Shown here: piece by piece, positions 5,458 through 64,000 of the stretch
How the letters are laid out: every line of letters begins with the position of its first letter
Numbering within the stretch: position 1 is the first letter of the stretch
Source of the DNA: Rhodothermales bacterium
GTDB taxonomy: Bacteria; Bacteroidota; Rhodothermia; Rhodothermales; UBA10348
Assembly (NCBI GenBank): GCA_965247125.1
Contig: CBDFGO010000003.1
Span: 6,058 to 70,057, forward strand
Direction of reading: 5' to 3'
Length of the DNA: 64,000 nt
Translations under genes and position numbers: made by a program
The notes under the pieces: model-generated
Seen by the model: only the letters and a program-made list of their open reading frames with translations
Database searches by the model: none
Told to the model about the DNA's origin: nothing

Positions 5458-5459
5458 GT

Positions 5460-5879: not shown

Positions 5880-5930
5880 AGAGATGGTCCTGATTCATCG
5901 GACAGTCTGAACAACAAATAAGGTGGAGTC

Positions 5931-6254
5931 TTGCGATCTTATCACCCTCAAGAAAGGCTACAAACGATGAGTCGCAAAAGAAGAAATCACAGCAATGCCT
6001 TCAAAGCAAAAGTAGCACTGGCGGCGGTTAAGGGAGACCGCACGATGGCCGAGTTGGCAGACCAATTCCAGGTGCACCCGAATCAGATTCAGACCTGGAA
6101 GAAGAAATTGATTCAGGACGCTGAAGAGGTCTTTGACAAAGGGCATTCCAGAAAGCACAACGAGGAGGGCCAGATCAAGGAGCTTCGCGCCAAGATTGGC
6201 GAGCTTTCGATGGAGAAGGATTTTTTATCCAAAGCGCTCGGTCGCACCCAGTAG
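5931..6254 (+). CDS. IS3-family transposase OrfA (HTH).
   Basis: MSRKRRNHSNAFKAKVALAAVKGDRTMAELADQFQVHPNQIQTWKKK is a typical IS3/IS150 OrfA. Confidence 0.85.
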   Translation: MRSYHPQERLQTMSRKRRNHSNAFKAKVALAAVKGDRTMAELADQFQVHPNQIQTWKKKLIQDAEEVFDKGHSRKHNEEGQIKELRAKIGELSMEKDFLSKALGRTQ

Positions 6255-6268
6255 GTGAGCGCCGCCAA

Positions 6269-7096
6269 ATGATCGACCCAATCCACGACCTCTCCATCAA
6301 ACGGCAGTGCAATCTGCTGGAGCTGAATCGCTCAACGGCCTACTACAAGCCGGTGGGCGAGAGCAAAGAGAACCTGGCCGTGATGAAAAAACTGGATGAG
6401 CTCTACCTTGAGCGGCCCACGCGAGGATCGCGCACCATGAAGGATGCGCTCGAGGACAGAGGTATTTTTGTGGGCCGCCATCGAATCCGGCGATTAATGC
6501 GTCTGATGGGCCTTATTGCCATTTATCCTAAGAAACGGACCTCGATTCCGGGAAAGGGTCACAAGATTTATCCGTATCTCTTGCGTAAGCTCAACGTGAC
6601 GCGGCCCCGGCAGGTTTACGCAAGCGACATCACATTCATTCCGATGAAAAGGGGATTCGTTTACCTGGTCGCCGTCATCGACTGGTACAGCCGAAAAGTA
6701 CTCTCACGCCGGATCTCCAATACGATGGACACCGACTTCTGTGTGGAAGCGCTCGAAGAAGCAATCGCCGTGTATGGAGCGCCAGAGATCTTCAATACGG
6801 ATCAGGGCAGCCAGTTCACACCCGTGGCCTTTACTGATGTTCTGAAGAATCATGACATCAAAATCTCTATGGATGGCAAAGGACGCTGGATGGACAACGT
6901 GTTCGTTGAACGTCTGTGGCGTAGCCTGAAATATGAAGAGGTGTACCTTAAAGCCTATGACAGTGTGGCTGAAGCCCGCAAATCCATTGCTGTATACTTC
7001 GACTACTTCAATAACGAAAGGCGACACAGCTCACATGGAAGAAAGACCCCTGATCACGTATTTTTTAATCACCAGCCGCTTCAAGAAGCAGCATAA
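6269..7096 (+). CDS. IS3-family transposase OrfB (DDE integrase core).
   Basis: rve-type DDE motifs (DITF..., SMDGKGRWMDNVFVERLWRSLKYEEVY). It is in the -1 frame relative to orfA. Confidence 0.85.
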   Translation: MIDPIHDLSIKRQCNLLELNRSTAYYKPVGESKENLAVMKKLDELYLERPTRGSRTMKDALEDRGIFVGRHRIRRLMRLMGLIAIYPKKRTSIPGKGHKIYPYLLRKLNVTRPRQVYASDITFIPMKRGFVYLVAVIDWYSRKVLSRRISNTMDTDFCVEALEEAIAVYGAPEIFNTDQGSQFTPVAFTDVLKNHDIKISMDGKGRWMDNVFVERLWRSLKYEEVYLKAYDSVAEARKSIAVYFDYFNNERRHSSHGRKTPDHVFFNHQPLQEAA

Positions 7097-14465: not shown

Positions 14466-14580
14466 AAGCGCATGTTGCGGACTCGCACGACTGGCTGAGC
14501 CGGTTGGAAACGATTACTTTCTGAAAGGCGTGCGAATGCTCGCCGCAAGTCCGCCAGCCGTTATATACTCTCTTGAAAAT
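14466..14580. repeat. About 115-bp imperfect direct repeat, copy A. Copy B is at 16572-16686.
   Basis: GCATGTTGCGG(A/G)CTCGCACGACTGGCTGAGCCGGTTGGAAAC...GAATGCTCGCCGCAA(G/A)TCCGCCAGCCGTTAT, about 90% identical. The two copies flank the IS110 element plus higBA. Confidence 0.8.
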
Positions 14581-15860
14581 CAAGCCTTCACAGCGGGTAT
14601 CTGGTAGAATTTCTCTCCTTTAAAAGGAGTTTCGTTCTTGAGCATCCCCAAAATGGAGTGCAGCAGTTTTCTCATGACTGCAACGATGGCCACAAGTGGT
14701 TTTTTGCCCTGGGCGATCAGGTGTTCGTAGAAGGCCATGATGTTGGGCTCCCATTTGATGGCTACGAGTGCGGGCATGTAGAGTGCTCGCCTGAGCTTGA
14801 CGTTTCCCATCTTTGAAATACGCTCACGCTTTGCGACCGAGTCGCCAGAAGTGTATTTGCGAGGATCAAGTCCTGCATGTGCTACCCACTGACGTACGGA
14901 CATGCCATCGGGCAGAATCAAGATTTCTGGCAGAATCATGACAGCGCTTTTCTGTGCAATTCCTCGAATGCTGGTGAGTAGCAGAAATGCGGAATTCATC
15001 TGGTCGTGCCCTTCAATTAAACGAATTGCCTGTTCTAGCATGGCGGCGAGTCTGCGTTCCAGATGTCGAATGTTCACCTCGATGTCATTGATTACGATGG
15101 CTGATGTGGTCACAGTTGCACAGGCTTGGTGCAACCGTGCTTGCTCGCGGGTTCTCTCTGTGGTGAGGGCATGCATGCGGCGCGACATGCCTCTGAGCTC
15201 TAGAATCTCGTCTTTCGGAGGTGTCCAGAGCACAAATACCATGCGGCTTGCAAAATCGGCCAGCATATCGGCATCGACGCGGTCTGTCTTTGATCGGCGC
15301 ATTTGTGCTCGTGCAAACTGACGCGTGGCAGATGGATTGGCTACCATCAGTTCAACAGCGGAACACGAATCAAGGGTCAGCGCGAGGTCGAGACTGTAAT
15401 TGCCCGTTGCCTCGATCACCACACGCACGAACGCTCCAGGCTCCATAATCCACTTGATGAGCTGGCCATGACCTGCTGCGGTATTTAAAAACTGTTTCTG
15501 GCGAGCAGAACGATTTTCTTGGTGGATACATACATCGATCGTCGCCTTGCTTATATCGCAGCCAACAAAGACATTAGTGCACATGAGTCACTCCGGTTTG
15601 TAACGTGAAACGGATAATGATTCCGGTTTCCCATCCCGACCCAGGCGGCGGACATTGTATATGCAGGCTCACAGTATCACGCGAAATGATCCGGGCCTCG
15701 TAAACTCCTCAGCCTTCTGCTTGGGTCAGGCGGGGGGCTGATATAACGGACAGGTTCACTGACAAACAGGACCTAATGCAGCTACAGCCTTCCCCAGAAA
15801 CCTCAACATAACGAGAGGCGGGAAACCGACTGTTTTCTAGATACAATACGGTCTTTGTAA
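14577..15860 (-). mobile_element. IS110-family element. Boundaries are approximate; the stop codon abuts repeat A and a ~300-bp noncoding end lies 5' of the transposase.
   Basis: Transposase 14580-15584 (334 aa) has a DEDD-type N-terminus VGCDISKATIDVC and an IS110/IS116/IS902-type C-terminal domain. No terminal IRs are expected for this family. Confidence 0.65.
14580..15584 (-). CDS. IS110-family (DEDD) transposase.
   Basis: MCTNVFVGCDISKATIDVCIHQ...; C-terminal ...KKPLVAIVAVMRKLLHSILGMLKNETPF. Confidence 0.75.
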   Translation of the reverse strand: MCTNVFVGCDISKATIDVCIHQENRSARQKQFLNTAAGHGQLIKWIMEPGAFVRVVIEATGNYSLDLALTLDSCSAVELMVANPSATRQFARAQMRRSKTDRVDADMLADFASRMVFVLWTPPKDEILELRGMSRRMHALTTERTREQARLHQACATVTTSAIVINDIEVNIRHLERRLAAMLEQAIRLIEGHDQMNSAFLLLTSIRGIAQKSAVMILPEILILPDGMSVRQWVAHAGLDPRKYTSGDSVAKRERISKMGNVKLRRALYMPALVAIKWEPNIMAFYEHLIAQGKKPLVAIVAVMRKLLHSILGMLKNETPFKGEKFYQIPAVKA

Positions 15861-42663: not shown

Positions 42664-44047
42664 GAGCTATGCCCAAAAGTTGTGTATGGGTGAAAAAGGT
42701 ATAGGCGGCGTATCCTGATGATGATTACGTCATTGTCAATCCGAAGATTGGAGGATACACCGCCCATGAAGACGAATAACGCACACGAGAACGAGAACTA
42801 CAATAGCACAGAGGATGTGTTGACAGAAGTATTGCGAACAGGGGCCGCAAAGATGCTGGCCACAGCCGTTGAGGCCGAGGTTGAAGCTTTCTGCCAGCGC
42901 TACCAGTTCCTGCGCGACGAAGAGAATCGCCACCGCATCGTTCGCAATGGATATCTGCCAGAGAGGAAGATTTTGACTGGTATCGGGGAGGTCGCTGTAA
43001 AGATGCCCCGCATACGCGACCGTACGGGTCGGGGTGAGGATAGAATCGGTTTCCGCAGTTCGATACTACCAGCCTACCTCCGCAAGAGCCGCTCGCTTGA
43101 GGCCCTCATTCCATGGTTGTACCTGAAGGGAGTTTCAACGGGCGGCTTTGAGGCAGCGCTCTCGGCCCTTGTTGGTCCTGATGCCCCAGGGCTGACCTCC
43201 TCGACGATTGCGCGCCTGAAGACGCTTTGGACAAGGGAGCACGAAGACTGGCAAAAGCGGAGCCTGAAGGAGAAGCACTACGTCTATTTCTGGGCCGACG
43301 GTATTCACGTAAACGTACGCATGGATAAACAGAAACTGTGTCTGCTGGTCGTGATCGGCGCTACGGCCGATGGAAGGAAGGAGCTTATAGCACTCGAGGA
43401 CGGCTTTCGCGAGAGCAAGCAGTCGTGGCGAGAGTTGCTCCTGGAGCTGAGGCACCGCGGGCTGGATCAAGGACCGAAGCTGGCTGTTGCCGATGGAGCC
43501 ATGGGATTCTGGAGTGCTCTCGCAGAAGTTTATCCCGAGACGCGAGCCGCACGCTGTTGGGTGCACAAGACAGCAAATGTGCTCAACCGCCTGCCCAAGT
43601 CCGTTCAGAAGAAGGCAAAAGGTCACCTCACGCAGATCTATACAGCAGAAACAAAAAAGCAGGCAGAGAGCGCCCTTCTGTTTTTCATCAAAGCCTACCA
43701 GCAAAAGTATCCGAAAGCAGCAGAGATTCTGGTGAAAGACCGAGAAGAACTGCTCGCTTTTTATGACTTTCCGGCAGAACACTGGATCCATCTTCGGAGC
43801 ACAAATCCGATCGAATCTACGTTCGCGACCGTGCGCCTCAGGACCGCCAAAACGAGGGGATGTCTGAGCCGAGAAACAGCTCTTGCAATGGCCTTCCGTC
43901 TATGTAAAGAGGCTCAGAAGAAGTGGAGGAAACTGAATGCACCGCACCTATTGCAACTTGTAAAAAAAGGAATCAAATTCACCGACGGAATTACATCAGA
44001 ACGACACGCTGCCTAAACCTTCCATACACAACTTTTGGGCATAGCTC
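42664..44047 (+). mobile_element. IS256-family IS, copy 5, with a chimeric transposase-proximal terminus.
   Basis: Both termini are the GAGCTATGCCC type, forming a perfect IR. The transposase-proximal end reads GAGCTATGCCCAAAAGTTGTGTATGG|GTGAAAAAGGTATAGG, which is the IRL outer part joined to the IRR inner part. No target duplication. Confidence 0.9.
42718..44016 (+). CDS. IS256-family transposase.
   Basis: 432 aa. Confidence 0.9.
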   Translation: MMITSLSIRRLEDTPPMKTNNAHENENYNSTEDVLTEVLRTGAAKMLATAVEAEVEAFCQRYQFLRDEENRHRIVRNGYLPERKILTGIGEVAVKMPRIRDRTGRGEDRIGFRSSILPAYLRKSRSLEALIPWLYLKGVSTGGFEAALSALVGPDAPGLTSSTIARLKTLWTREHEDWQKRSLKEKHYVYFWADGIHVNVRMDKQKLCLLVVIGATADGRKELIALEDGFRESKQSWRELLLELRHRGLDQGPKLAVADGAMGFWSALAEVYPETRAARCWVHKTANVLNRLPKSVQKKAKGHLTQIYTAETKKQAESALLFFIKAYQQKYPKAAEILVKDREELLAFYDFPAEHWIHLRSTNPIESTFATVRLRTAKTRGCLSRETALAMAFRLCKEAQKKWRKLNAPHLLQLVKKGIKFTDGITSERHAA

Positions 44048-47793: not shown

Positions 47794-49029
47794 ATGCTAA
47801 AAAGTAGAACTGTGAACACACTTCGTGAACTGGCCGCTGACGGTCACTCCATCCGGGAGATCAGCAAACGCATGGGGCTTTCTCGTAACACTGTCCGTAA
47901 GTACTTGCGGACCATACCGGTGCCTGCTCCTCGGCCTAAACGGTATTCCAAACTGGAACCCTTCAAAGAGCAGGTTCGCCGTTGGGTACTCGAGGATCGA
48001 CTCCTCAACTGCGTGACCATGCATGAACGACTGCAGGTGATGGGATATAGCGGGGGCCTGACGATCCTGAAAGATTATGTTCGGCCACTTCGTCCGGCGA
48101 AAGGAGGCCGCCGACCGGTTCGGCGCTATGAGACCGATCCTGGCGAGCAGATGCAGATCGATTGGGGAACCTTTATGTACGAAGTAGGAGGTGTTCGCAA
48201 GAAGATCTACGGCATGACGGCGGTCATGAGTTACTCGCGCATGCGATATGTTATCTTCTCGAAGCGTTGCGACACAGCCAGTCTGATTCGTGCCATCCAA
48301 GACGCGCTGGAATACTTTGGTGGCCTGCCACAGACCATCCTGAGTGATCGCATGAAGAGTGTGCTGCTCACGGTCGAAGACGGACAATTCATCTGGAACA
48401 GTGTTTATGCCGATTTTTTAGCCGCGATTGGCGTAGTGCCACGGGTGTGTCGCTCGAGAGTGCCACAGACGAAGGGAAAGGTCGAACGCTCCATCCGGGT
48501 CATCAAAGAGAGCTTCTGGCCCGGTGTGCGCTTTGGCGATGTTGGCCACCTCAACGAACAGGCCAGAATCTGGTACACATCCCGCAACTCACGTCTTCAC
48601 CGAACGACACATGAGCGGCCCGATGAGCGACACCAGAGGGAAAAACTGAGCTCCTTGCCTGTGGGCTACGCATGGGAACGATTCCGGAGTGAGCCTAGGC
48701 GAGTAACGTGGGATGGCTTTATCTCCTTTGACGGCGTACTCTACGGCCTTCCGAGCGAACCACTGACGGCCGGCGACCTGGTCGATGTCACCTACCGCGA
48801 TCAGGAGATCCTCGTCTGGTACAAAGGACACCTCGTCGTTCGTCACCGAGTGCGCCACGAGTCCGGACTAACGGTCTGGCATGCGGACCAGTTTAAAACG
48901 ATTCCACCCGCAGCTGAGAGCCACCGCTTGCCCGCTCCCGTTGCATACCAGGTGCCCTCCATTGAAGCGCCGCGTCGCTCGCTCACCGAGTATGATGATC
49001 TCTTCAAGGCGCAAGAGGTTGTGATATGA
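47794..49029 (+). CDS. istA: IS21 transposase IstA.
   Basis: N-terminal HTH (HSIREISKRMGLSRNTVRKYL) and DDE core. Confidence 0.85.
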   Translation: MLKSRTVNTLRELAADGHSIREISKRMGLSRNTVRKYLRTIPVPAPRPKRYSKLEPFKEQVRRWVLEDRLLNCVTMHERLQVMGYSGGLTILKDYVRPLRPAKGGRRPVRRYETDPGEQMQIDWGTFMYEVGGVRKKIYGMTAVMSYSRMRYVIFSKRCDTASLIRAIQDALEYFGGLPQTILSDRMKSVLLTVEDGQFIWNSVYADFLAAIGVVPRVCRSRVPQTKGKVERSIRVIKESFWPGVRFGDVGHLNEQARIWYTSRNSRLHRTTHERPDERHQREKLSSLPVGYAWERFRSEPRRVTWDGFISFDGVLYGLPSEPLTAGDLVDVTYRDQEILVWYKGHLVVRHRVRHESGLTVWHADQFKTIPPAAESHRLPAPVAYQVPSIEAPRRSLTEYDDLFKAQEVVI

Positions 49030-49793
49030 GCACGACCCTTGCCATTGATGATCTTCTGCGCCGCCTACGTCTTGGACAGTTGGCTTCGCAGCTTCCAGAG
49101 CTGATCGAAGGAGCGCGGCAGCAGAAACTATCGTACGAACGATTCCTGGCCTCCGTTCTCGAGACCGAACTGCGTGGACGCGACGATCGTGCACTCGTGC
49201 GCCGGATGCGTTCGGCCCGCTTACCCCTGAAAGCCCGTTTAGAGACCTTCGACTTTGCCTTCCAGCCCTCGATCTCTGAGCGCCTGGTTGGCGAACTGGC
49301 GCAAGGATCCTATCTCGATACGGCTACTAACGTAATCCTGCTCGGGCCACCGGGCGTGGGAAAGACCCATCTGGCCTGTGCGCTCGCCGTTAAAGCTATC
49401 GAGAGCGGACATACGGCACGCTTTACAACGCTTCGCTCATTGATCACGGATCTGGGAGGACTCGGACGACGTGAGGTCAAGACGCTGCGGGCGTATCTAA
49501 AACCAGATTTGTTGATCATTGATGAGATTGGTTATTCCCAGCTCAGTCCCGATAACGCTAACAGTCTCTTCGAACTTATCACCGCACGATATGAACGTGG
49601 ATCCATCATCCTGACGAGTAATCTCTCCTTCAATGACTGGGGCAACCTGCTCGGAGACGATGTCCTGGCGACTGCCATGCTCGACCGTCTGCTGCACCAC
49701 GCCGAGGTCATCACCATTAACGGACGCTCCTACAGAATGCGTAACCACATAGAAAACGATCAACCATCCACCGCCGTGGGTGGGTCAATTTAA
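49026..49793 (+). CDS. istB: IS21 helper ATPase IstB.
   Basis: Walker A LLGPPGVGKTHLA and Walker B LLIIDEIG. Confidence 0.9.
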   Translation: MSTTLAIDDLLRRLRLGQLASQLPELIEGARQQKLSYERFLASVLETELRGRDDRALVRRMRSARLPLKARLETFDFAFQPSISERLVGELAQGSYLDTATNVILLGPPGVGKTHLACALAVKAIESGHTARFTTLRSLITDLGGLGRREVKTLRAYLKPDLLIIDEIGYSQLSPDNANSLFELITARYERGSIILTSNLSFNDWGNLLGDDVLATAMLDRLLHHAEVITINGRSYRMRNHIENDQPSTAVGGSI

Positions 49794-52175: not shown

Positions 52176-52486
52176 AGATGGTCCTATAAAACTGGACAGG
52201 GTCTTAGGTGGAATCTTGCGGATTGATTATGCTGCTTCTTGAAGCGGCTGGTGATTAAAAAATACGTGATCAGGGGTCTTTCTTCCATGTGAGCTGTGTC
52301 GCCTTTCGTTATTGAAGTAGTCGAAGTATACAGCAATGGATTTGCGGGCTTCAGCCACACTGTCATAGGCTTTAAGGTACACCTCTTCATATTTCAGGCT
52401 ACGCCACAGACGTTCAACGAACACGTTGTCCATCCAGCGTCCTTTGCCATCCATAGAGATTTTGATGTCATGATTCTTCAAGCACA
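52176..52486 (-). pseudogene. IS3-A fragment (right end plus last 84 codons of orfB), truncated by IS256 copy 8.
   Basis: Begins AGAGATGGTCCTATAAAACTGGACAGGGTC and matches the orfB C-terminus. Confidence 0.85.
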
Positions 52487-53870
52487 GAGTTAACCCCGAA
52501 AGTTGTGTACGGGTGAAAAAGGTATAGGCGGCGTATCCTGATGATGATTACGTCATTGTCAATCCGAAGATTGGAGGATACACCGCCCATGAAGACGAAT
52601 AACGCACACGAGAACGAGAACTACAATAGCACAGAGGATGTGTTGACAGAAGTATTGCGAACAGGGGCCGCAAAGATGCTGGCCACAGCCGTTGAGGCCG
52701 AGGTTGAAGCTTTCTGCCAGCGCTACCAGTTCCTGCGCGACGAAGAGAATCGCCACCGCATCGTTCGCAATGGATATCTGCCAGAGAGGAAGATTTTGAC
52801 TGGTATCGGGGAGGTCGCTGTAAAGATGCCCCGCATACGCGACCGTACGGGTCGGGGTGAGGATAGAATCGGTTTCCGCAGTTCGATACTACCAGCCTAC
52901 CTCCGCAAGAGCCGCTCGCTTGAGGCTCTCATTCCATGGTTGTACCTGAAGGGAGTTTCAACGGGCGGCTTTGAGGCAGCGCTCTCGGCCCTTGTTGGTC
53001 CTGATGCCCCAGGGCTGACCTCCTCGACGATTGCGCGCCTGAAGACGCTTTGGACAAGGGAGCACGAAGACTGGCAAAAGCGGAGCCTGAAGGAGAAGCA
53101 CTACGTCTATTTCTGGGCCGACGGTATTCACGTAAACGTACGCATGGATAAACAGAAACTGTGTCTGCTGGTCGTGATCGGCGCTACGGCCGATGGAAGG
53201 AAGGAGCTTATAGCACTCGAGGACGGCTTTCGCGAGAGCAAGCAGTCGTGGCGAGAGTTGCTCCTGGAGCTGAGGCACCGCGGGCTGGATCAAGGACCGA
53301 AGCTGGCTGTTGCCGATGGAGCCATGGGATTCTGGAGTGCTCTCGCAGAAGTTTATCCCGAGACGCGAGCCGCACGCTGTTGGGTGCACAAGACAGCAAA
53401 TGTGCTCAACCGCCTGCCCAAGTCCGTTCAGAAGAAGGCAAAAGGTCACCTCACGCAGATCTATACAGCAGAAACAAAAAAGCAGGCAGAGAGCGCCCTT
53501 CTGTTTTTCATCAAAGCCTACCAGCAAAAGTATCCGAAAGCAGCAGAGATTCTGGTGAAAGACCGAGAAGAACTGCTCGCTTTTTATGGCTTTCCGGCAG
53601 AACACTGGATCCATCTTCGGAGCACAAATCCGATCGAATCTACGTTCGCGACCGTGCGCCTCAGGACCGCCAAAACGAGGGGATGTCTGAGCCGAGAAAC
53701 AGCTCTTGCAATGGCCTTCCGTCTATGTAAAGAGGCCCAGAAGAAGTGGAGGAAACTGAATGCACCGCACCTATTGCAACTTGTAAAAAAAGGAATCAAA
53801 TTCACCGACGGAATTACATCAGAACGACACGCTGCCTAAACCTTCCATACACAACTTTTGGGCATAGCTC
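52487..53870 (+). mobile_element. IS256-family IS, copy 8.
   Basis: No clean target duplication. The transposase carries a D-to-G substitution (FYGFPAEHW). Confidence 0.9.
52541..53839 (+). CDS. IS256-family transposase.
   Basis: 432 aa. Confidence 0.9.
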   Translation: MMITSLSIRRLEDTPPMKTNNAHENENYNSTEDVLTEVLRTGAAKMLATAVEAEVEAFCQRYQFLRDEENRHRIVRNGYLPERKILTGIGEVAVKMPRIRDRTGRGEDRIGFRSSILPAYLRKSRSLEALIPWLYLKGVSTGGFEAALSALVGPDAPGLTSSTIARLKTLWTREHEDWQKRSLKEKHYVYFWADGIHVNVRMDKQKLCLLVVIGATADGRKELIALEDGFRESKQSWRELLLELRHRGLDQGPKLAVADGAMGFWSALAEVYPETRAARCWVHKTANVLNRLPKSVQKKAKGHLTQIYTAETKKQAESALLFFIKAYQQKYPKAAEILVKDREELLAFYGFPAEHWIHLRSTNPIESTFATVRLRTAKTRGCLSRETALAMAFRLCKEAQKKWRKLNAPHLLQLVKKGIKFTDGITSERHAA

Positions 53871-54430
53871 CCAAGAGCAATCGAAAGTCCTCTTTGAAAA
53901 GAAACTGCTGAACGTCGGTTATAGTCTCCAAGGCCATCCAGCGACAGCCAATTAAAGAACCGCCAACGCCGGTGAGGAGTGCGGGTACGTAGGTACTCAC
54001 AACTTCGAGACTGGCTGATTTAGATATGCGGGGCACATCCAGGGAGCTCGAGTCTCTACCGATTCCTCAGCCAAGCGCTGCCGGTTACGCGTTCTCTTGC
54101 TAGCGGTCGCCGAGCGAACACTCCAATAGACGCATAGATATTGTAGCATACATGTATCACATATGTATTATTTTGCACAATTGGTGTAACACGCCTATTG
54201 ACCTTGAGACAAAAAGATGTATCCTTACTTAAGCAAATCTCGTGAACTGAAATATTTGGCCCTCCAACGGCGTGGTACTTCAGCCGATTAACTGTTTCTC
54301 TTGACGCATGGATACTTGGATTGCGAGCGTATTTGGACGAGATCGGGGTGAATCCATCGAACTGAGTAGTCTTCCGGAGCTGTTCCATCGGGTTCCGGAG
54401 ATGGATATAGTGGAACGCCCAGAGAATCAC

Positions 54431-55814
54431 GAGCTATGCCCAAAAGTTGTGTATGGAAGGTTTAGGCAGCGTGTCGTTCTGATGTAATTCCGTCGGTGAA
54501 TTTGATTCCTTTTTTTACAAGTTGCAATAGGTGCGGTGCATTCAGTTTCCTCCACTTCTTCTGAGCCTCTTTACATAGACGGAAGGCCATTGCAAGAGCT
54601 GTTTCTCGGCTCAGACATCCCCTCGTTTTGGCGGTCCTGAGGCGCACGGTCGCGAACGTAGATTCGATCGGATTTGTGCTCCGAAGATGGATCCAGTGTT
54701 CTGCCGGAAAGTCATAAAAAGCGAGCAGTTCTTCTCGGTCTTTCACCAGAATCTCTGCTGCTTTCGGATACTTTTGCTGGTAGGCTTTGATGAAAAACAG
54801 AAGGGCGCTCTCTGCCTGCTTTTTTGTTTCTGCTGTATAGATCTGCGTGAGGTGACCTTTTGCCTTCTTCTGAACGGACTTGGGCAGGCGGTTGAGCACA
54901 TTTGCTGTCTTGTGCACCCAACAGCGTGCGGCTCGCGTCTCGGGATAAACTTCTGCGAGAGCACTCCAGAATCCCATGGCTCCATCGGCAACAGCCAGCT
55001 TCGGTCCTTGATCCAGCCCGCGGTGCCTCAGCTCCAGGAGCAACTCTCGCCACGACTGCTTGCTCTCGCGAAAGCCGTCCTCGAGTGCTATAAGCTCCTT
55101 CCTTCCATCGGCCGTAGCGCCGATCACGACCAGCAGACACAGTTTCTGTTTATCCATGCGTACGTTTACGTGAATACCGTCGGCCCAGAAATAGACGTAG
55201 TGCTTCTCCTGCAGGCTCCGCTTTTGCCAGTCTTCGTGCTCCCTTGTCCAAAGCGTCTTCAGGCGCGCAATCGTCGAGGAGGTCAGCCCTGGGGCATCAG
55301 GACCAACAAGGGCCGAGAGCGCTGCCTCAAAGCCGCCCGTTGAAACTCCCTTCAGGTACAACCATGGAATGAGAGCCTCAAGCGAGCGGCTCTTGCGGAG
55401 GTAGGCTGGTAGTATCGAACTGCGGAAACCGATTCTATCCTCACCCCGACCCGTACGGTCGCGTATGCGGGGCATCTTTACAGCGACCTCCCCGATACCA
55501 GTCAAAATCTTCCTCTCTGGCAGATATCCATTGCGAACGATGCGGTGGCGATTCTCTTCGCCGCGCAGGAACTGGTAGCGCTGGCAGAAAGCTTCAACCT
55601 CGGCCTCAACGGCTGTGGCCAGCATCTTTGCGGCCCCTGTTCGCAATACTTCTGTCAACACATCCTCTGTGCTATTGTAGTTCTCGTTCTCGTGTGCGTT
55701 ATTCGTCTTCATGGGCGGTGTATCCTCCAATCTTCGGATTGACAATGACGTAATCATCATCAGGATACGCCGCCTATACCTTTTTCACCCGTACACAACT
55801 TTCGGGGTTAACTC
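54431..55814 (-). mobile_element. IS256-family IS, copy 9, inserted into the ATPase gene of the 54308-59172 cassette.
   Basis: 9-bp target duplication GAGAATCAC. The transposase carries three substitutions (D-to-G, K-to-Q, V-to-A). Coordinates are anchored on the ORF; my line count differs by 2 bp. Confidence 0.9.
54462..55760 (-). CDS. IS256-family transposase.
   Basis: 432 aa. Confidence 0.9.
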   Translation of the reverse strand: MMITSLSIRRLEDTPPMKTNNAHENENYNSTEDVLTEVLRTGAAKMLATAVEAEVEAFCQRYQFLRGEENRHRIVRNGYLPERKILTGIGEVAVKMPRIRDRTGRGEDRIGFRSSILPAYLRKSRSLEALIPWLYLKGVSTGGFEAALSALVGPDAPGLTSSTIARLKTLWTREHEDWQKRSLQEKHYVYFWADGIHVNVRMDKQKLCLLVVIGATADGRKELIALEDGFRESKQSWRELLLELRHRGLDQGPKLAVADGAMGFWSALAEVYPETRAARCWVHKTANVLNRLPKSVQKKAKGHLTQIYTAETKKQAESALLFFIKAYQQKYPKAAEILVKDREELLAFYDFPAEHWIHLRSTNPIESTFATVRLRTAKTRGCLSRETALAMAFRLCKEAQKKWRKLNAPHLLQLVKKGIKFTDGITSERHAA

Positions 55815-57170
55815 GAGAATCACATCATCCTGGGCGTAAAAGGAACAGGAAAATCGACAGTACTGCGGGCGCTCACACCCGAAGCCTGGCAACTCCGACA
55901 GCCCGGATTGGAAGAGTTACCCTATATGGGTATATACGTTCCAATGGCATACTCAGACGTGTCAGGCTTTGTCCCATTAGACAATGAGGGTCAAGACACG
56001 ACGCTATTCGAGCATTATTTCGTGGCTTCGGTTTTCACACAACTCTGCTCGCAATGGGAAGTCGTGTTGAATCTGGAGCGTAATCACACTATTGCACGAT
56101 TGCTGATAGAAAAACTGAAAGGCAATGAGCTTCCAGAACACCTGGACCTAGAATCGCTCGTACCCATATTCGCCAGAACCTGTGATGAAGTACAAAGGAA
56201 GATCAGAGAAGAACTTGTTACAGATGCAAGAAAAGTAGAGTGGGTGACGAGAGCACCTCTGCGAATAGTTGACCTCGTTGACACGCTGAAACAAATCGGA
56301 CACACCTTAGAGAAGCAAGATAAGTCCTTTCGAAGAATAGGGTTATTTTTGGACTCCTTCGACTACTATCAACGACTGGGACGTGTGATCGCTCCGCTCC
56401 TGCAGTCTGATAGTAGTGTCCAACTCGTGTGTAAAATTGCCTCGCGTACTCTAGATGTCGTAGATGGTTTTGCTGCCGCAGGTCGCAGGTTGGAGCTTGA
56501 TCGAGATTTCCAGGTCTTGTCGCTTGACCGGTCCCCAGACAACAAGCAATACCATGATTTCGTACGAGCGGCTATTGTTAGGCGAGTACGCAAGTTTTGT
56601 GGAATCGCAAGTAGCCTTTCTGATGGCGAGATAATTGAATTGCTGTGTTACGATTCGAGCGCCCCGGAAGATGGAGGCTCATTTGAATCATTGTGTAGCA
56701 TTTCAAGCGGTAATCTACTTTCGGTTTACGAGTTGATTGATACTGCTGCTCAGATTCAAAGATATGATGGTGAAAGCGAGTCTAAGGGGGCCACTCCACT
56801 AGAGCGACGGTGTCGTATTTCTAGTATAAAGCATTATTCAGATAGGTTTTGGAATCATGAAATTGGGGAGAGAATGGGTCCGTCCACTCTTGAGGCGGAG
56901 ACCTTTTGCGATGTAGCCCTGTCTTTTGCTCCGGACAAGAGCCAAGCCAATCGATACTCACCGCGCTTCGTGTTTGACATCGCATCCGAGAGAAGTAAGA
57001 CATTTATTCCTAAAATGCTTGCGAATCGCGTTCTGATAGCGGTTGATCCGATTACAAACAGAAATGCGCAAGCGGGTCTACCTTTGGGATCTCCGGTGGA
57101 ATTCGAGTTGAACAGAGGCCTCTTACCGGTGAAAAAAGAACTCCGATCATGGGCGATCGAGTCGATCTAA
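55815..57170 (+). pseudogene. P-loop (AAA+-like) ATPase, first gene of the 54308-59172 cassette, interrupted by IS256 copy 9. The N-terminal 41 codons are at 54308-54430.
   Basis: Rejoined reading: MDTWIASVFGRDRGESIELSSLPELFHRVPEMDIVERPENH-IILGVKGTGKSTVLRAL...LEELPYMGIYVP... Walker A is GVKGTGKST. The candidate Walker B is RIGLFLDSFD. The annotated Met at 55908 is internal. Confidence 0.6.
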
Positions 57171-58201
57171 GTCGAGGTGAGTTCACCCGTCGATATCGGA
57201 CATCTCTGAAGAGAATGCGCCCGCGAATCAGTCCCAAAGCTGGTAAGCAACAGGCAAATCTTTTTCGCCATGACTTCTGCGTATTTGTCTCAATCCCTTT
57301 TGATGCAAAGAAGAAGGACCGGAATCGCGTATTAAGAAAGGCGATCAACCGAATATACAAGGAACTGACCGGCGAGCAGGGGGGACCTGGCACTTCGTAT
57401 GTTGATGTGTTCTCTATGCCGAGGACGGGATCTTTCAGATACGACATTCCAAAATACCTCCGTGATTCAAATTACTGCGTGGCTGATGTAACAGATATGG
57501 GTAGGGATTCAGGGCTATCACCGGGCGTGTTTTTTGAAATAGGATTAGCCGTCGGTGTTCGAAAACCATTTGCAATGTTTTACAACACGCAGTACGCAGA
57601 GCGCAACTTCGACGTCGACAGACTTCCGAGATATTTGCGCGGTCAAACTGTCCTTATATGGGGAGAGGGGCAGAAAACGAGTTTCTATGAAGCATATCGG
57701 CCTGTTCACGAGACTCTTGTGGCACAATCTGGGAAGTGGGAGCACCCATTCAACGAGGATTCTGGTTCGAAAGGAGGGGAGTCGTCAAATCCCATTGCAT
57801 ATCTATCATTCCAGCCGAGAAACCAAAAAGCAGAGGAGTGGATTGCCGAGCGCATAGCCAGGACATTTCCTCGTATGCAACTAATAACCCCGCGGGACTT
57901 TGCGTCGGATGACGGGGCAAGACTAGTCGAGACCGTCGCAAAAGCAGAACTGGCTGTCATAGATTGTACCGGTGGTATAAACGAGTACGCACTTGAGTTG
58001 GGCGTCGCAGCGGCTCTGAGACCGGATCACGTTATCGAAGTATGGAATAATCGAGTTGACTCGCGATTGAATCCTATTGCAATGTTTCCCGGAAGCAGGT
58101 TTGCTTGGACTGAGCGCGGAAATATTGATGAGGAAGACATTGATCGCTTATTGGAAGATATCGCTCGGCGTACTCAACTCGGCAGATTAATGAGGAAATG
58201 A
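57149..58201 (+). CDS. Tandem nucleoside-2-deoxyribosyltransferase-like/TIR-like (flavodoxin-fold, SLOG-related) domain protein. An alternative start is at 57215.
   Basis: Two repeats of the NDT-type motif: CVFVSIPFD...ADVTDMGRDSGLSPGVFFEIGLAVGVRKP and AELAVIDCTGGINEYALELGVAAALRP. Low GC. Overlaps the upstream gene end and is coupled to the downstream gene by ATGA. Confidence 0.5.
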   Translation: MGDRVDLSRGEFTRRYRTSLKRMRPRISPKAGKQQANLFRHDFCVFVSIPFDAKKKDRNRVLRKAINRIYKELTGEQGGPGTSYVDVFSMPRTGSFRYDIPKYLRDSNYCVADVTDMGRDSGLSPGVFFEIGLAVGVRKPFAMFYNTQYAERNFDVDRLPRYLRGQTVLIWGEGQKTSFYEAYRPVHETLVAQSGKWEHPFNEDSGSKGGESSNPIAYLSFQPRNQKAEEWIAERIARTFPRMQLITPRDFASDDGARLVETVAKAELAVIDCTGGINEYALELGVAAALRPDHVIEVWNNRVDSRLNPIAMFPGSRFAWTERGNIDEEDIDRLLEDIARRTQLGRLMRK

Positions 58202-59172
58202 TCCCGAGGAAAGTTGATACTTTTCTTCCTGCCAGAGATAGCAGGCATGACGATCTGCTTATTGTATGCAGCAGCTTCGAACATCGCTGCATGGGCTTTC
58301 TGAAGCACGTAACATCGCAGACCGAAAAATATTCATGCAAGCGAGTACTTAGAGTGCGATTCGATGACAGAGGTGATAGCGCAATTCGTCAGCGAGTCAG
58401 AGGCATCGAGCCGATGTTGGACTCGCTCGCAAAAAAATGCTCCCAATCTGGCTTGATTGAGTACCTGGAGCTTGAGCCCTACATCATCTATGATTCCTAC
58501 CGTGCTTATAAAAATTTGTGCAGGTCTGTAGATACGGGATCGTCCGTAGTGGTAGACGTCTCTACTATGCCGAAGCTGCATTGTTTGTATTTGCTCAAGG
58601 CAGCGCAAGAGAGCGGCAGAATTGCAAGACTACGAATGGTATATACAAGGGCCCGCTACGGTAGGTTCGACGACCTTTCATTTAGTAGCGAACAGCCGAC
58701 CGTTCTGCCACTCTTTGGCACTCATAGAAAGACAGAATTTAAATCGTCCCACCTTCTCCTATTTTGCGGGCTCGAGCCAGCCAGAAGCTACTCAGTGTGG
58801 AAAAGATATGGCCAGAACCGCTGTACAAAGATATTCATTGATAGCGGCAGACAAGATCCCGAGAGGTGTATTGCACGAGCTCAGCGCATGAACGATTTTG
58901 GTGGCACAAGTAGTGAAATTACGTTAGATGCCTTCAATCCGAATGGTGTTCTTACCTGGCTGAAAGAGACTTATGAAAGCTCGTTTAAACAAGGTGAGTA
59001 CATGTATATATCTCCCATGACCACGAAATGGGAATTGCTCGCAGTCTGGAAGTTTTTCTCTTTAGATAATCGAGCTCAGGCAGGTATCGTATATACAAGT
59101 CCAGCTCGTCTGAACGCACGAGGTCATACGTTGGAGCGAACCGGGGAAGTTCTTTCTGCGAGCGTATGGTAG
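58198..59172 (+). CDS. Rossmann-like protein of unknown function, possibly a CARF/SAVED-like sensor. Third gene of the cassette.
   Basis: LLIVCSSFEHRCMG and VVVDVSTMPK (D-x-S-x-x-x-K) resemble CARF-type strand motifs. No other recognisable catalytic motif. Confidence 0.35.
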   Translation: MIPRKVDTFLPARDSRHDDLLIVCSSFEHRCMGFLKHVTSQTEKYSCKRVLRVRFDDRGDSAIRQRVRGIEPMLDSLAKKCSQSGLIEYLELEPYIIYDSYRAYKNLCRSVDTGSSVVVDVSTMPKLHCLYLLKAAQESGRIARLRMVYTRARYGRFDDLSFSSEQPTVLPLFGTHRKTEFKSSHLLLFCGLEPARSYSVWKRYGQNRCTKIFIDSGRQDPERCIARAQRMNDFGGTSSEITLDAFNPNGVLTWLKETYESSFKQGEYMYISPMTTKWELLAVWKFFSLDNRAQAGIVYTSPARLNARGHTLERTGEVLSASVW

Positions 59173-59649: not shown

Positions 59650-61188
59650 ATGCCGAAGAAGCGATTATCCGTGAAGAAGACCAGAGAGATACTACGTTTG
59701 CGTTTTGAGTGCGGCCTCTCAGAACGAAAGATTGCCACCAGTTGTGCGATCGCCAGAAGCACGGTTGCCGATTATTTGAATCGGGCGAGGGAAGCCGCTC
59801 TGACGTGGCCACTACCCGATGACGTGACCGAGGATGCGCTCGAAGAGCTTCTCTTCCCAGCTCGTCCTCACCAGAAATCTCGGCGTCCCCTTCCGGACTG
59901 GGAAACGCACAGAAAGGAACTGACCAGGGACGGCGTCACGATGCAGCTCCTGTTCGAGGAATACCGTGAAAAGCATCCGGACGGATACAGCCGATCACGT
60001 TTTTTTGATCTCTATCGTATCTGGAAAGGGACCATTGATCCGGTTATGCGAATCGAGCACAAGGCAGGCGACAAACTCTTTGTCGATTACAGTGGGCAGA
60101 CCGTTGCAGTCATCGATCCAGAGACAAATGAAGAGAGACGGGCCGAAGTGTTTGTCGCCACACTGGGCGCCAGTAATTACACCTACGCCGAGGCCACATG
60201 GACGCAGTCGCTACCGGACTGGATTGGCGCTCACGTACGGGCACTGGAATTTATAGGAGGGGTTCCCAGATTATTAATCCCCGATAACCTGAAGAGCGGA
60301 GTAACGGACGCCAATTACTACGAACCGAGTATCAACGAAACCTACGCCCGGATGGCCGCGCATTACGGCGTAGCTGTACTGCCTGCCCGGGTTCGCCATC
60401 CGCAAGATAAAGCTAAGGTGGAGATTGCTGTCAAAATCGTAGAATCTCGCATTTTGGCACGACTTCGGAATCGGAGATTCTTCTCGCTGCATGAGTTGAA
60501 CCTGGCAATCCGCGAACTCCTCGAGGATCTAAACAATCGTCCGTTCCAGAAGCTCTCAGGTAGTCGCCGCTCACTCTTTGAAGAGATCGAGCGCTCAGCG
60601 CTCGCTCCTCTACCGGTCTCGCCCTACCTCTACTGCGAATGGAAAAAAGCACGCGCGGGAATCGATTACCACATCGCCGTCAAAAAGCATTACTACAGCG
60701 TCCCGTTTATCTACATCAAGAAAGAGCTCGATGTATGCGTGAGTGAGCGCACCGTTGAGGTCTTCTACAAGGAGGAGCGGATTGCCAGTCATCGCCGTTC
60801 CGCGCGCCAGGGTATGTTCACGACGCTTACCGAGCACATGCCCAAAAGCCACCGTCAGTATGCCGAATGGTCGCCGAGCCGCTTGATTCGCTGGGCTTCA
60901 AAGTCTGGAGAATCGACGGCTCTCCTGATGGAAAATCTTCTCGACTCCTACCCTCATCCCGAACACGGCTACCGGGCAGGACTCGGCATCATGCGTCTGG
61001 CCAAAACCTACGGAGACGACCGCCTTGAGGCTGCGTGCCAACGCGCGCTCTCCATTGGAACGTGCCGCTACAAAAGTGTCAAGTCCATCCTGAAGAACAA
61101 TCTTGACCAGGCGCCGCTGCCAGAAAAGATCAATCCCAGAGCGCCCATCACTCACGCCAATATCCGTGGATCTGAGTATTACAGCTAA
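59650..61188 (+). CDS. istA: IS21 transposase IstA (512 aa).
   Basis: HTH N-terminus and DDE core. Confidence 0.85.
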   Translation: MPKKRLSVKKTREILRLRFECGLSERKIATSCAIARSTVADYLNRAREAALTWPLPDDVTEDALEELLFPARPHQKSRRPLPDWETHRKELTRDGVTMQLLFEEYREKHPDGYSRSRFFDLYRIWKGTIDPVMRIEHKAGDKLFVDYSGQTVAVIDPETNEERRAEVFVATLGASNYTYAEATWTQSLPDWIGAHVRALEFIGGVPRLLIPDNLKSGVTDANYYEPSINETYARMAAHYGVAVLPARVRHPQDKAKVEIAVKIVESRILARLRNRRFFSLHELNLAIRELLEDLNNRPFQKLSGSRRSLFEEIERSALAPLPVSPYLYCEWKKARAGIDYHIAVKKHYYSVPFIYIKKELDVCVSERTVEVFYKEERIASHRRSARQGMFTTLTEHMPKSHRQYAEWSPSRLIRWASKSGESTALLMENLLDSYPHPEHGYRAGLGIMRLAKTYGDDRLEAACQRALSIGTCRYKSVKSILKNNLDQAPLPEKINPRAPITHANIRGSEYYS

Positions 61189-61214
61189 TCCGATAACCAA
61201 ACCAGAAAAAGAAC

Positions 61215-61979
61215 ATGCTACCAAACCCCACACTCGAGCGCCTACGCTCCATTCGACTGCACGGCATGGCCGATGCGTATGCCGAACAGAGTGAACAAAC
61301 AGATATAGAAGCGCTCACATTTGATGAGCGATTCGGCCTGCTCGTTGACCGAGAGGCCGCCGAGAGAGAAAACCGGCGCCTCACGAATCGGCTGCGCCGC
61401 GCTCGCCTTCGGCAATCGGCCTCGATCGAAGACATCGATTACACTGCTGCCCGGGGCTTCGACAAGTCACTCATCCGTTCGCTTGCCCGCTGCCACTACA
61501 TCCGTGAGCATCAGAACATCCTCATCGTCGGTCCCACCGGAACGGGAAAGACCTACCTGGCTTGTGCGCTCGCTCATAAAGCCTGTCTCGAAGGATTTAC
61601 GGCTGGATACTATCGACTATCGAATCTCCTTGCCGATCTTGAGATAGCAAAGGTGGACGGTCGGTATCCAAAGATCATTCGGGATCTGGCAAAGAACGAT
61701 CTGATTATTCTCGACGACTGGGGTCTGGCACCGATCGCAGATCATGTGCGGCCCATTTTACTTGAGATTCTTGATGACCGACATGGGAATCGATCGACCA
61801 TTGTAACGAGCCAATTACCCGTTGACGCCTGGCACACAGCCATCGGAGAGGCAACGATCGCTGACGCCATTCTTGATAGACTTGTACACGACGGCCACCG
61901 GATCGAACTTGAGGGAGATTCAATGAGAAAGAAACGCTCTACAGTCAAACACAAACCGACTCAAATAACCGAACAATAA
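61215..61979 (+). CDS. istB: IS21 helper ATPase IstB.
   Basis: Walker A IVGPTGTGKTYLA and Walker B LIILDDWG. Confidence 0.9.
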   Translation: MLPNPTLERLRSIRLHGMADAYAEQSEQTDIEALTFDERFGLLVDREAAERENRRLTNRLRRARLRQSASIEDIDYTAARGFDKSLIRSLARCHYIREHQNILIVGPTGTGKTYLACALAHKACLEGFTAGYYRLSNLLADLEIAKVDGRYPKIIRDLAKNDLIILDDWGLAPIADHVRPILLEILDDRHGNRSTIVTSQLPVDAWHTAIGEATIADAILDRLVHDGHRIELEGDSMRKKRSTVKHKPTQITEQ

Positions 61980-62073
61980 CACCCGCGTCGCTACGCTCCG
62001 ACCCGGCCGATTAGAATCGGATTGGGTGGCCGGTTTGCGCCGGAATCAGTGGCCGAATACGTCGGAATACACA

Positions 62074-62763
62074 TCCATCTGCCGCCACGCGGATCCACGC
62101 GGGCTTAATTACAAAAATCCAAAGCACCAACAAAAACAGCTGTATTGCGAAAACGAAATAAATAGATACAGGCAAGACTAAACCCTGACTGACATACGTA
62201 CTAGCGAGAAGCGCAGTAGCCAAAATTGACATAGATAAAATGACCAAACCGAGTGGCTTCAGACCCCATAGATTTCGTCTGAATCCAAAATTACAATTCT
62301 CGGAAAACAATAAATAAAATCGGTCTTTGTCTCTTGTGCGGTCTCTGAGCATTCTACTGCATGTTTCATAAATCTCATCAGCCGAGTCTGGATCCGCAGC
62401 CTCTTCTTCAGGAGTTGGGAGCTTTGGAGAGTCTCCAAGTAGCGTTTGTAGTTTGGAGTGCAATCGCTTGATGTAGTGTTCGTTAGAACTAGCTGAATAC
62501 CTGAGATTAACTACTGAAGGCGCACCACCCCAGGACTGAAATAAGCCAGCTTGTTTTTTCTTACCACGATCACGGCCGAGTTGCGCTAAAAGAGCGGGTA
62601 TTCCTGCTGATACTGCGAGACTCCAAAGATTTTCCCCAGTCGTTTCAAGCTCTGGGAACCATGATATTGAAGCTAAAATTGCTGGAAGCATCACAATCAA
62701 AACAGGAAGCAAACGAGCCTTTATTGTGTACGTATCAAACTTCATCATTTTCCATGATTGCAT
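62074..62763 (-). pseudogene. Membrane protein (about 245 aa) split by IS21-B. The last 15 codons are at 59407-59451.
   Basis: TM helices at both ends. Across the TCCATCT duplication the frame rejoins as ...IRVAADG-YADQLLGSVEIL*. The listed ORF tail CVFRRIRPLIPAQTGHPIRF is IS-encoded. Confidence 0.55.
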
Positions 62764-62774
62764 AATTGGTCAAG

Positions 62775-63236
62775 TTATTCTTCCACCTGATTGTAGAAAG
62801 GTATGGGTGTGGCGCCTGGCCAATTTCGACCGGGCGCATTATGACTGTGCAATCTGTTCCCACCTTTTGTGGCAAAAGGACGGGCACCTCGACGTCGAAA
62901 AGCGTTGGTGACTTTTTTTGATGGATGTTTTGGTTCGCCATTAACAGCTACGGATACTAGGGCTGTTTTAATTCTTTCATCCGTGTTGAGTCTCGGTCCA
63001 ACAATTCGATCTAGAATTGCAGGGCCAATGTTTCGCTTACTTCCATGATGAGGGACTTGTATGAAATGTGTTTGAGAGAGATCGATTCCAGCATTGTCAC
63101 ATAGCTCAATAACTTGCGTTAATGCTGGTATTCCCGCATCTGCTGTAAAAAGTGACCTGTGACCATCTACAGTCAGTAACAAAACGGTACTTGTATTATT
63201 TCTTGGACTGGTTTCTCCTTCGTTGGTTAAGGTTTG
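62775..63236 (-). pseudogene. MBL-fold metallo-hydrolase C-terminal fragment (ComEC/YycJ-like ...VPHHGSKRN tail), N-terminally truncated by IS256 copy 10.
   Basis: ...HFIQVPHHGSKRNIGPAILD. The upstream reading frame runs into the IS256 left end at 63237. Confidence 0.45.
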
Positions 63237-64000
63237 GAGCTATGCCCAAAAGTTGTGTATGGAAGGTTTAGGCAGCGTGTCGTTCTGATGTAATTCCGTC
63301 GGTGAATTTGATTCCTTTTTTTACAAGTTGCAATAGGTGCGGTGCATTCAGTTTCCTCCACTTCTTCTGAGCCTCTTTACATAGACGGAAGGCCATTGCA
63401 AGAGCTGTTTCTCGGCTCAGACATCCCCTCGTTTTGGCGGTCCTGAGGCGCACGGTCGCGAACGTAGATTCGATCGGATTTGTGCTCCGAAGATGGATCC
63501 AGTGTTCTGCCGGAAAGTCATAAAAAGCGAGCAGTTCTTCTCGGTCTTTCACCAGAATCTCTGCTGCTTTCGGATACTTTTGCTGGTAGGCTTTGATGAA
63601 AAACAGAAGGGCGCTCTCTGCCTGCTTTTTTGTTTCTGCTGTATAGATCTGCGTGAGGTGACCTTTTGCCTTCTTCTGAACGGACTTGGGCAGGCGGTTG
63701 AGCACATTTGCTGTCTTGTGCACCCAACAGCGTGCGGCTCGCGTCTCGGGATAAACTTCTGCGAGAGCACTCCAGAATCCCATGGCTCCATCGGCAACAG
63801 CCAGCTTCGGTCCTTGATCCAGCCCGCGGTGCCTCAGCTCCAGGAGCAACTCTCGCCACGACTGCTTGCTCTCGCGAAAGCCGTCCTCGAGTGCTATAAG
63901 CTCCTTCCTTCCATCGGCCGTAGCGCCGATCACGACCAGCAGACACAGTTTCTGTTTATCCATGCGTACGTTTACGTGAATACCGTCGGCCCAGAAATAG
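63237..64000 (-). mobile_element. IS256-family IS, copy 10, truncated by the window edge.
   Basis: GAGCTATGCCCAAAAGTTGTGTATGG left end at 63237. The transposase ORF continues past the window end. Confidence 0.9.

Follow-up and report, generated by a model that had tools for sequence, protein, structure and literature searches.

A doubly interrupted Rhodothermales locus points to a rare defence-island-type module pairing an ORC/Cdc6-like ATPase with a CARF6 protein

A 64,000-nucleotide stretch of a Rhodothermales bacterium genome (GenBank assembly GCA_965247125.1, contig CBDFGO010000003.1; hereafter the window, to whose full length all coordinates refer) carries, at positions 54308-59172, what appears from comparison with its relatives to be a two-gene module with two lesions in its first gene, an insertion sequence (IS) and a 1-nt deletion. 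When intact, gene A would encode a protein of ~833 aa comprising an N-terminal ORC/Cdc6-like AAA+ ATPase, a helical middle and two C-terminal flavodoxin-like domains of the N-glycosidase type, whose fold is shared by TIR domains and nucleoside 2-deoxyribosyltransferases (NDTs); gene B encodes a CARF protein of the CARF6 clade. We favour, with somewhat more confidence than doubt, the reading that a rare, defence-island-type module was recently inactivated at this locus, a module for which a CARF6 sensor, an ATPase switch and an NDT/TIR effector are proposed. A sequence-only reading of the same DNA had described a three-gene cassette, which does not hold: its genes 1 and 2 form one open reading frame (ORF) in relatives and are divided here by a frameshift. 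Intact homologues were identified, and the interest of the locus lies in the family and not in the dead window copy.

The first lesion is an IS256-family element of 1384 bp (54431-55814, minus strand) that splits gene A after codon 41. Its transposase (54462-55760, minus strand, 432 aa) is a DDE enzyme of the Mutator/IS256 type (Pfam Transposase_mut, 4.8e-65), its ends are imperfect terminal inverted repeats of ~26 bp, and it is bordered by perfectly matching 9-bp copies of GAGAATCAC at 54422-54430 on the left and 55815-55823 on the right, so that all features of the IS256 family (a Mutator-type DDE transposase, terminal inverted repeats and an 8-9-bp duplication) were found. The motif GAGAATCAC occurs three times in the window against 0.9 expected, with at least three occurrences reached in 4 of 100 shuffles, and the repeat by itself is not beyond chance; we read it as a target-site duplication because it is placed exactly at both ends of the IS and because the reading frame is restored. 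When the IS and one repeat copy are removed, the severed 5′ end of the gene (54308-54430, plus strand, codons 1-41) joins 55824-57170 in frame to give 489 aa, just as had been proposed from the sequence, and in relatives the N-terminal MDTWIASVFGRDRGE is matched by MWIGDVFGRERGE. The element inside the ATPase gene is identical to a truncated IS256 copy at 63237-64000, which makes a recent insertion plausible. The original claim of inactivation by a recent IS256 insertion thus stands for this lesion, but it had mistaken the second one for a gene boundary.

That second lesion follows the gene body (55824-57131, plus strand), which encodes the ORC-CDC6-like AAA+ domain and the helical middle region and ends at a run of six A residues (A6; 57132-57137). 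Three-frame translation of 57080-57260 places the change of frame at this run, and a seventh A restores a single 833-aa ORF; the missing nucleotide would detach the C-terminal half of gene A. The supposed end of gene 1 is an out-of-frame tail, ELRSWAIESI* (57138-57170, plus strand), with no counterpart in relatives, while the supposed gene 2, called from an ATG at 57149, is the C-terminal portion of gene A, read in the shifted frame (57138-58201, plus strand), and carries both TIR/NDT-fold domains. We compared the window with eight related loci: L001, from the Bacteroidales metagenome-assembled genome (MAG) CAVPIY010000005.1, and L003, L005, L006/7, L008, L010, L017 and L018. In BLASTP against the 833-aa protein of L001, gene 1 covered residues 2-475 and gene 2 residues 485-829, and together the two can be aligned along the full length of single proteins of 821-833 aa, those of L001, L003, L005, L006 and L008 and the relatives P0028 and P0029. 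The A7-repaired ORF reads NRGLLPVKKRTPIMGDRVDL and aligns without a gap across the junction with NRLILPRFDRLPKKGRRIRL of relatives, including the R-x-P residues (RTP) upstream of the putative gene 2 ATG. The repaired protein, at 833 aa, equals the L001 protein in length, and of 124 positions without variation across ten relatives it retains 113. All eight related loci encode ATPase and NDT domains as one ORF, and the ancestral unit, judged by these alignments, was one gene whether the A6 run is a lesion or an assembly error. In this genome, the module is predicted to be non-functional.

It is rather improbable that the division into genes 1 and 2 is no lesion, reflecting instead a homopolymer assembly error or a natural, functional split into two polypeptides. 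Long-read consensus errors typically occur at sites such as an A6 homopolymer, the new frame has an ATG 12 nt downstream of the run, and one Rhizobium relative has its ATPase annotated as two coding sequences. Against this, indel noise is low: the ten IS256 copies in the window, which are 99.6-100% identical, align over ~13 kb in total without one gap, and for this reason we regard the A6 frameshift as probably real. The uninterrupted ORF of every related locus and the conserved residues that extend upstream of the ATG in the gene 2 frame likewise speak against a natural split, and further decay is expected of a gene already dead through the IS. Programmed −1 frameshifting at the A-run was considered separately and rejected, as all relatives have one continuous ORF.

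The N-terminal part of gene A matches Pfam family PF24389 (ORC-CDC6-like) with 80.1 bits against a gathering cut-off of 27 (E 2.1e-22), residues 15-304 aligning with profile positions 9-309 of 571, and this match is common to all relatives. Both nucleotide-binding motifs recognized in the sequence-only reading are conserved in the family: the Walker A motif GVKGTGKST (55833-55859, plus strand), in which GxxGxGK[ST] is invariant, and the Walker B-like LFLDSFDYY (56343-56369, plus strand), in which the Asp of hhhhDSxDYY is invariant and is followed by Ser, not Glu. An SSGN sensor-like motif (56703-56714, plus strand) and an R-D-F motif are also conserved in the alignment. A weak NCBIfam match names a 'Sll1717 family P-loop ATPase', and a search of solved structures with the ATPase profile returned P-loop noise only.

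The C-terminal half contains two TIR/NDT-fold domains, one at ~57272-57710 with its Glu in GVFFEIG (57524-57544) and the other at ~57794-58180 with its Glu in ALELGV (57989-58006), all on the plus strand. The motif block of domain 1, [V/L]AD[I/V][S/T]D...GVFYEIGLAxGxxKP, is the NDT signature including the Glu (G-x-x-x-E-x-G), and the block of domain 2, IDCT...N..[L/I]ELG, echoes this pattern; the Glu of domain 1 is invariant in 13 diverse members, that of domain 2 only in the close subfamily. In the numbering of the repaired 833-aa protein, these residues are E613 and E766. In fold comparison the region resembles TIR or NDT domains of known structure and has the conserved Glu in its G-x-x-x-E-x-G loop, and MilB and Rcl were among the matches of the NDT-like domains. 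Pfam Nuc_deoxyrib_tr (PF05014) matches recur at the homologous site in many relatives, with 28.6 bits for P0047 and 28.1 for P0052. A further relative, P0046, which matches gene 2 at E 5.4e-8 in an exhaustive search, scores 35 bits and passes the Pfam cut-off, so that NDT homology of the window protein is supported transitively. The description 'tandem NDT/TIR-like' is therefore correct at the level of fold, at which TIR and NDT cannot be told apart from these data, but it had been applied to a separate gene, and it does not extend to the Pfam threshold considered below. The gene 2 product is present in the protein collection, with no encoding contig on record. One other match, P0039 (a repeat protein of 1422 aa), aligned thirteen times with a 50-residue stretch (gene 2 residues 78-128; E 1.8e-28); it also matches many unrelated Pfam families with no single significant stretch, and is probably a compositional or repeat artefact.

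Gene B (58198-59172, plus strand, 324 aa) shares a 4-nt ATGA overlap with gene A at 58198-58201, the coupling that had been noticed from the sequence. Its product matches the PADLOC CARF6 profile PDLC01911 at 2.4e-17, residues 17-304 aligning with model positions 21-302 of 325, and nine further PADLOC CARF6 models (ten in all), and Foldseek gave probability 1.00 to Crn1, Csm6, Cam1 and Csa3. CARF domains are reportedly marked by a [DN]x[ST]xxx[RK] signature after strand 4 together with a conserved polar loop after strand 1. The window protein has DVSTMPK (58555-58575, plus strand, residues 120-126), in which D120, S122 and T123 are invariant, and a strand-1 loop SSFExRC, in which S26, F27, E28, R30 and C31 are invariant; what had been called CARF-like is thus CARF by profile, fold and signature motif.

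The second half of the gene B product repeats the strand-loop pattern (LLLFCGLEPxR, TTKWE), with FCGLEP (58762-58779) and TTKWE (59020-59034), both on the plus strand, marking a probable second CARF-like lobe. Structural alignments extended over 214 residues of Can1, which has two CARF domains, and ~180 residues of SAVED domains, lengths that suggest a Can1-like or SAVED-like two-lobe arrangement; an hhalign comparison between the two lobes placed the motifs in register and was not significant (E 0.3). We infer a two-lobed, pseudo-dimeric CARF protein, in which no effector domain was recognizable. A profile search of solved structures with the CARF6 profile found no relative. In the protein clusters, the 324-aa window protein (58198-59169) belongs to a 90%-identity cluster represented by a 51-aa fragment and was therefore missed by the representative-based homologue search.

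Gene order adds comparative support for the module. Eleven relatives of gene B, 42-49% identical to it, were recovered, and the contig of each has one PF24389 gene encoding 821-833 aa directly upstream. Counting the window, 9 of 9 loci have the ATPase-NDT gene next to the CARF6 gene in the same orientation, with no counter-example and mostly with a 4-nt overlap or a gap of <25 nt; the co-occurrence that the sequence-only reading had proposed to check is thus present in all eight related loci, as two genes. The pair is kept even in L010, whose ATPase is only 26% identical and whose CARF protein matches CARF6 profiles. The family is nonetheless extremely rare and patchy. An exhaustive HMMER search with gene 2 gave 26 matches among 1.84 billion cluster representatives, the full-length ones being mostly 780-910-aa proteins with the same ATPase-NDT fusion; a scan of 185,579 species-representative genomes found one locus, that of the Bacteroidales MAG, and a metagenome scan found 6. 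Searches of IMG/VR, of 72,556 plasmids and of 50,697 phage records yielded no relative of the window-type proteins, and the PHROGs phage protein families gave nothing useful.

Neighbouring genes vary from locus to locus in the manner typical of defence islands and mobile elements. L006 lies beside ThsB-TIR and caspase genes resembling type IV Thoeris, L001 beside a PDC-S35 TIR gene, L008 beside genes for a TIR protein, RadC and NDT + QueC, L005 beside GmrSD, a Dnd-associated gene and four integrases, and L017 beside NERD and an HNH-like protein. TIR genes adjoin the ATPase–CARF6 dyad in three of the eight related loci (L006/L007 11268-12623, ThsB-like + caspase; L001 11162-12043, PDC-S35; L008 863-1438, ThsB-like). 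They match separate PADLOC systems and are treated as neighbours, the ThsB + caspase pair of L006 having been rejected as a part of the dyad, although such TIR proteins may be a source of the CARF6 signal. In the window itself, the C-terminal fragment of PADLOC candidate PDC-M48B, an MBL-fold protein related to LmuA/RTasMBL, lies at 62778-63182 (minus strand, 135 aa; model 225-357 of 357; E 2.1e-31), and its 5′ part has been removed by the IS256 copy that begins at 63237. As this fragment was cut by another IS256 copy, we conclude that the cassette sits in a decaying, IS-riddled defence island. The defence-like reading is borne out by conserved synteny across such defence and mobile-element contexts, and the conserved housekeeping operon that would have spoken against it was not seen, only L003 having mostly ordinary neighbours.

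A sister module places the dyad in a wider setting. At metagenome loci L012-L014 and on two plasmids, Rhizobium beringeri pRlX2 (L015; NZ_CP140809) and Moraxella osloensis p1 (L016; NZ_CP047227 46624-52151), we found the order (DNA methyltransferase, often)–PRTase-CE (PF24390)–ORC-CDC6-like ATPase (PF24389)–CARF6 protein. All sister-module genes on both plasmids are annotated as 'hypothetical protein' in RefSeq; the sister CARF6 proteins match PDLC01914 at ~1e-100, and those of L012-L014 match CARF6 profiles. Both modules have a PF24389 ATPase followed by an adjacent, co-oriented CARF6 gene and an enzyme that acts at ribose C1′. They differ in that the sister ATPase has 670-720 aa, spans the whole 571-position PF24389 profile and lacks NDT domains, whereas the window-type ATPase covers only profile positions 9-309 and has two TIR/NDT-fold domains fused C-terminally. 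PRTase-CE genes are present in L012-L016 and absent from the window and the eight NDT-fused loci, and no methyltransferase gene occurs in the window or beside the NDT-fused variant in any of the nine loci. The conserved dyad thus appears to be ORC-CDC6-like ATPase + CARF6, with an exchangeable ribose C1′ enzyme — a separate PRTase or a fused tandem NDT/TIR-like unit — as the predicted third activity. Since the PRTase is replaced by fused NDT domains beside the same dyad, the two enzymes look like interchangeable effectors, and the four-gene sister module looks like an unnamed defence or restriction-modification-like system of its own. In L015, the ATPase is annotated as two coding sequences (4998-7008; 285 + 355 aa, profile 1-243 and 318-571), a split or decayed copy, and a SIR2-family gene follows the CARF6 gene. 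Further plasmids of Rhizobium, Sinorhizobium and Bradyrhizobium were picked up by tblastn with the CARF6 protein as query.

None of the named defence families could be assigned, as the earlier reading had also concluded. The PADLOC models of named systems produced nothing beyond P-loop-level noise for the ATPase (PtuA, mad8; E > 0.002) and one borderline TIR match for gene 2 (E 0.014), and with matches at this level we rejected Thoeris, CBASS, Pycsar, Septu, Lamassu and MADS. The window proteins have no PADLOC ThsA or ThsB match and no ThsA (SIR2, Macro or SLOG) partner. The TIR/NDT flavodoxin-like fold, conserved Glu and defence-island context are shared with Thoeris, PycTIR, TIR-SAVED and retron NDT effectors; unlike in these, the window-type domains occur in tandem and fused to an AAA+ ATPase. 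CBASS and Pycsar are further set apart because neither PADLOC nor Pfam detected a CD-NTase or pyrimidine cyclase among the window proteins or the neighbours at related loci. With the type III CARF effectors (Csm6, Can1/Can2/Card1, the CARF-TIR protein Cat1, and Cad1) the module shares the CARF fold, the signature motif and the sensor-plus-effector logic, but it has no cas10 or other cas genes, its effector is not fused to CARF, and it includes a partner ATPase. No cas family occurs in the Pfam lists of the eight related loci or among the scanned window ORFs, and the CARF6 clade was seen without CRISPR linkage in 9 + 5 loci.

BREX offers a parallel for the ATPase, since ORC/Cdc6-clade ATPases act there as scaffolds (10.1101/2025.10.09.681413). 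Like BrxC/DUF499-type proteins, the window ATPase falls among the AAA+ enzymes of the ORC/Cdc6 clade and stands at the core of a multi-component system; unlike BREX, the locus lacks PglZ, BrxX and all other BREX genes, and its ATPase is matched by no PADLOC Brx model. The label 'undescribed' thus applies in part: our search of the available literature found no paper describing the ATPase + CARF6 dyad, but its components are catalogued, as the CARF6 and 'PRTase_III-A' profiles of PADLOC and the consecutive Pfam entries PF24389 and PF24390, the latter belonging to the sister module. What is new is the tandem NDT/TIR-like fusion in place of the PRTase; what was known is a catalogued but unstudied dyad of ORC/Cdc6-like ATPase and CARF6.

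That the module is a conflict system of some kind seems to us probable. How it would work is a more tentative matter, and the following mechanism, taken by itself, falls somewhat short of an even chance. The CARF6 protein, translationally coupled to gene A, would sense a nucleotide-derived ligand and control the ATPase, which would serve as an oligomerization or conformational switch; this switch would turn on the tandem NDT/TIR-like module, whose cleavage of N-glycosidic bonds in NAD+ or (deoxy)nucleotides would lead to growth arrest or abortive infection. Retrons use NDT-like and PRTase proteins as alternative effectors, and NAD+ is hydrolysed by the NDT-like one of Retron-Eco1; CARF-TIR (Cat1) and TIR-SAVED are sensor-effector fusions. 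Several results weigh against this proposal. The Pfam lists of the related loci contain no cyclase, Cas10 or CD-NTase, which leaves the source of a CARF ligand unexplained. The window protein scores 20.3 bits with Nuc_deoxyrib_tr against a cut-off of 28.8 (E 6.3e-4) and is not a Pfam-level member of PF05014, and hhalign between the two NDT-like halves is not significant (E 0.11), with the motifs in register. The full-length model is poor (pLDDT 60.9, pTM 0.36), and domain packing, sensor, arginine finger and any winged helix cannot be placed in it with confidence. The second CARF6 lobe is rich in invariant polar residues (YTRARYG, FCGLEP, TTKWE, RLNxxGHT), which could mean an enzymatic, ring-nuclease-like role over pure sensing. 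Finally, signalling in the module may run either from sensor to effector or from generator to sensor.

The latter direction defines one alternative, which we consider unlikely: the ATPase, on detecting infection, would switch on the TIR/NDT module to make a nucleotide messenger, as ThsB TIR proteins do, and CARF6 would be the receptor, acting on the ATPase or on some effector whose gene lies elsewhere. An operon holding both producer and receptor would explain the missing cyclase. However, a CARF6 protein with no effector domain, together with the lack of a third conserved gene in the nine loci, leaves no obvious killing or arrest activity, and the enzyme that takes this place in the sister module is a PRTase. 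A restriction function is quite improbable; here the ATPase would bind DNA in the manner of BrxC, the NDT-like domains would attack phage-type modified (deoxy)nucleotides or DNA as glycosylases or hydrolases, and CARF6 would modulate this. The methyltransferase gene beside PRTase-CE, ATPase and CARF6 in the sister module recalls restriction-modification logic, ORC/Cdc6-clade ATPases do scaffold BREX, and the MilB and Rcl fold matches point to a mechanism directed at DNA or modified nucleotides; yet no methyltransferase adjoins the NDT-fused variant, and a DNA-binding domain was not demonstrated in the poor structure model. NDT-family enzymes are classically salvage enzymes, and L003 sits among mostly ordinary genes, but a housekeeping nucleotide-salvage or metabolic operon with no conflict role is very hard to reconcile with the family's rarity and patchiness, with variable neighbourhoods rich in defence and mobile-element genes, with the fusion of NDT domains to an ORC/Cdc6-like ATPase and its pairing with a CARF protein, and with the loss of the window copy to an IS without apparent replacement.

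Returning to a conflict role, the strict pairing of CARF6 with an ORC/Cdc6-like ATPase offers a testable architecture of sensor, switch and N-glycosidase-type effector, and possibly a new anti-phage family. Of the sensors of cyclic-oligoadenylate signalling in type III CRISPR immunity, CARF domains are the best known. A bolder proposal, which we hold to be doubtful, is that the dyad is a self-contained, CRISPR-independent CARF immune system in which the TIR/NDT tandem produces, or is triggered by, a new nucleotide messenger other than a cyclic oligoadenylate, read by the pseudo-dimeric tandem-CARF receptor. If true, it would establish a new family of defence systems, sister to the PRTase-CE module, and would give the CARF6 clade its first function.

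Insertion sequences recur across the whole window. Ten IS256 copies start at 8210, 16799, 24015, 26861, 42672, 44346, 50430, 52487, 54431 and 63237, and the 9-bp target duplication is kept at only four of them (8210, 44346, 50430 and 54431); its loss at the others suggests IS-IS recombination and rearrangements. The copy at 42672-44047 lacks 8 bp at one end. As the sequence-only reading had stated, the cassette is boxed in by IS256 copies, at 52487-53870 and from 63237, and by an IS21 element (istA/istB, 59650-61979). Its GC content lies below that of the surroundings, as had also been noted, although the three cassette ORFs have 47.3-49.0% and not the ~45% first given, compared with 53.5% for the IS and 55-59% for nearby blocks. 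Promoter and terminator scans of the cassette flanks gave matches at chance level only, and a multi-transmembrane ORF beside the PDC-M48B fragment (62011-62763, 250 aa) had no family match. Further mobile elements in the window are an IS3-type integrase fragment (rve_3; 52227-52481, minus strand), a second IS21-like pair (47794-49793, plus strand) and an IS110-family transposase (14580-15584, minus strand).

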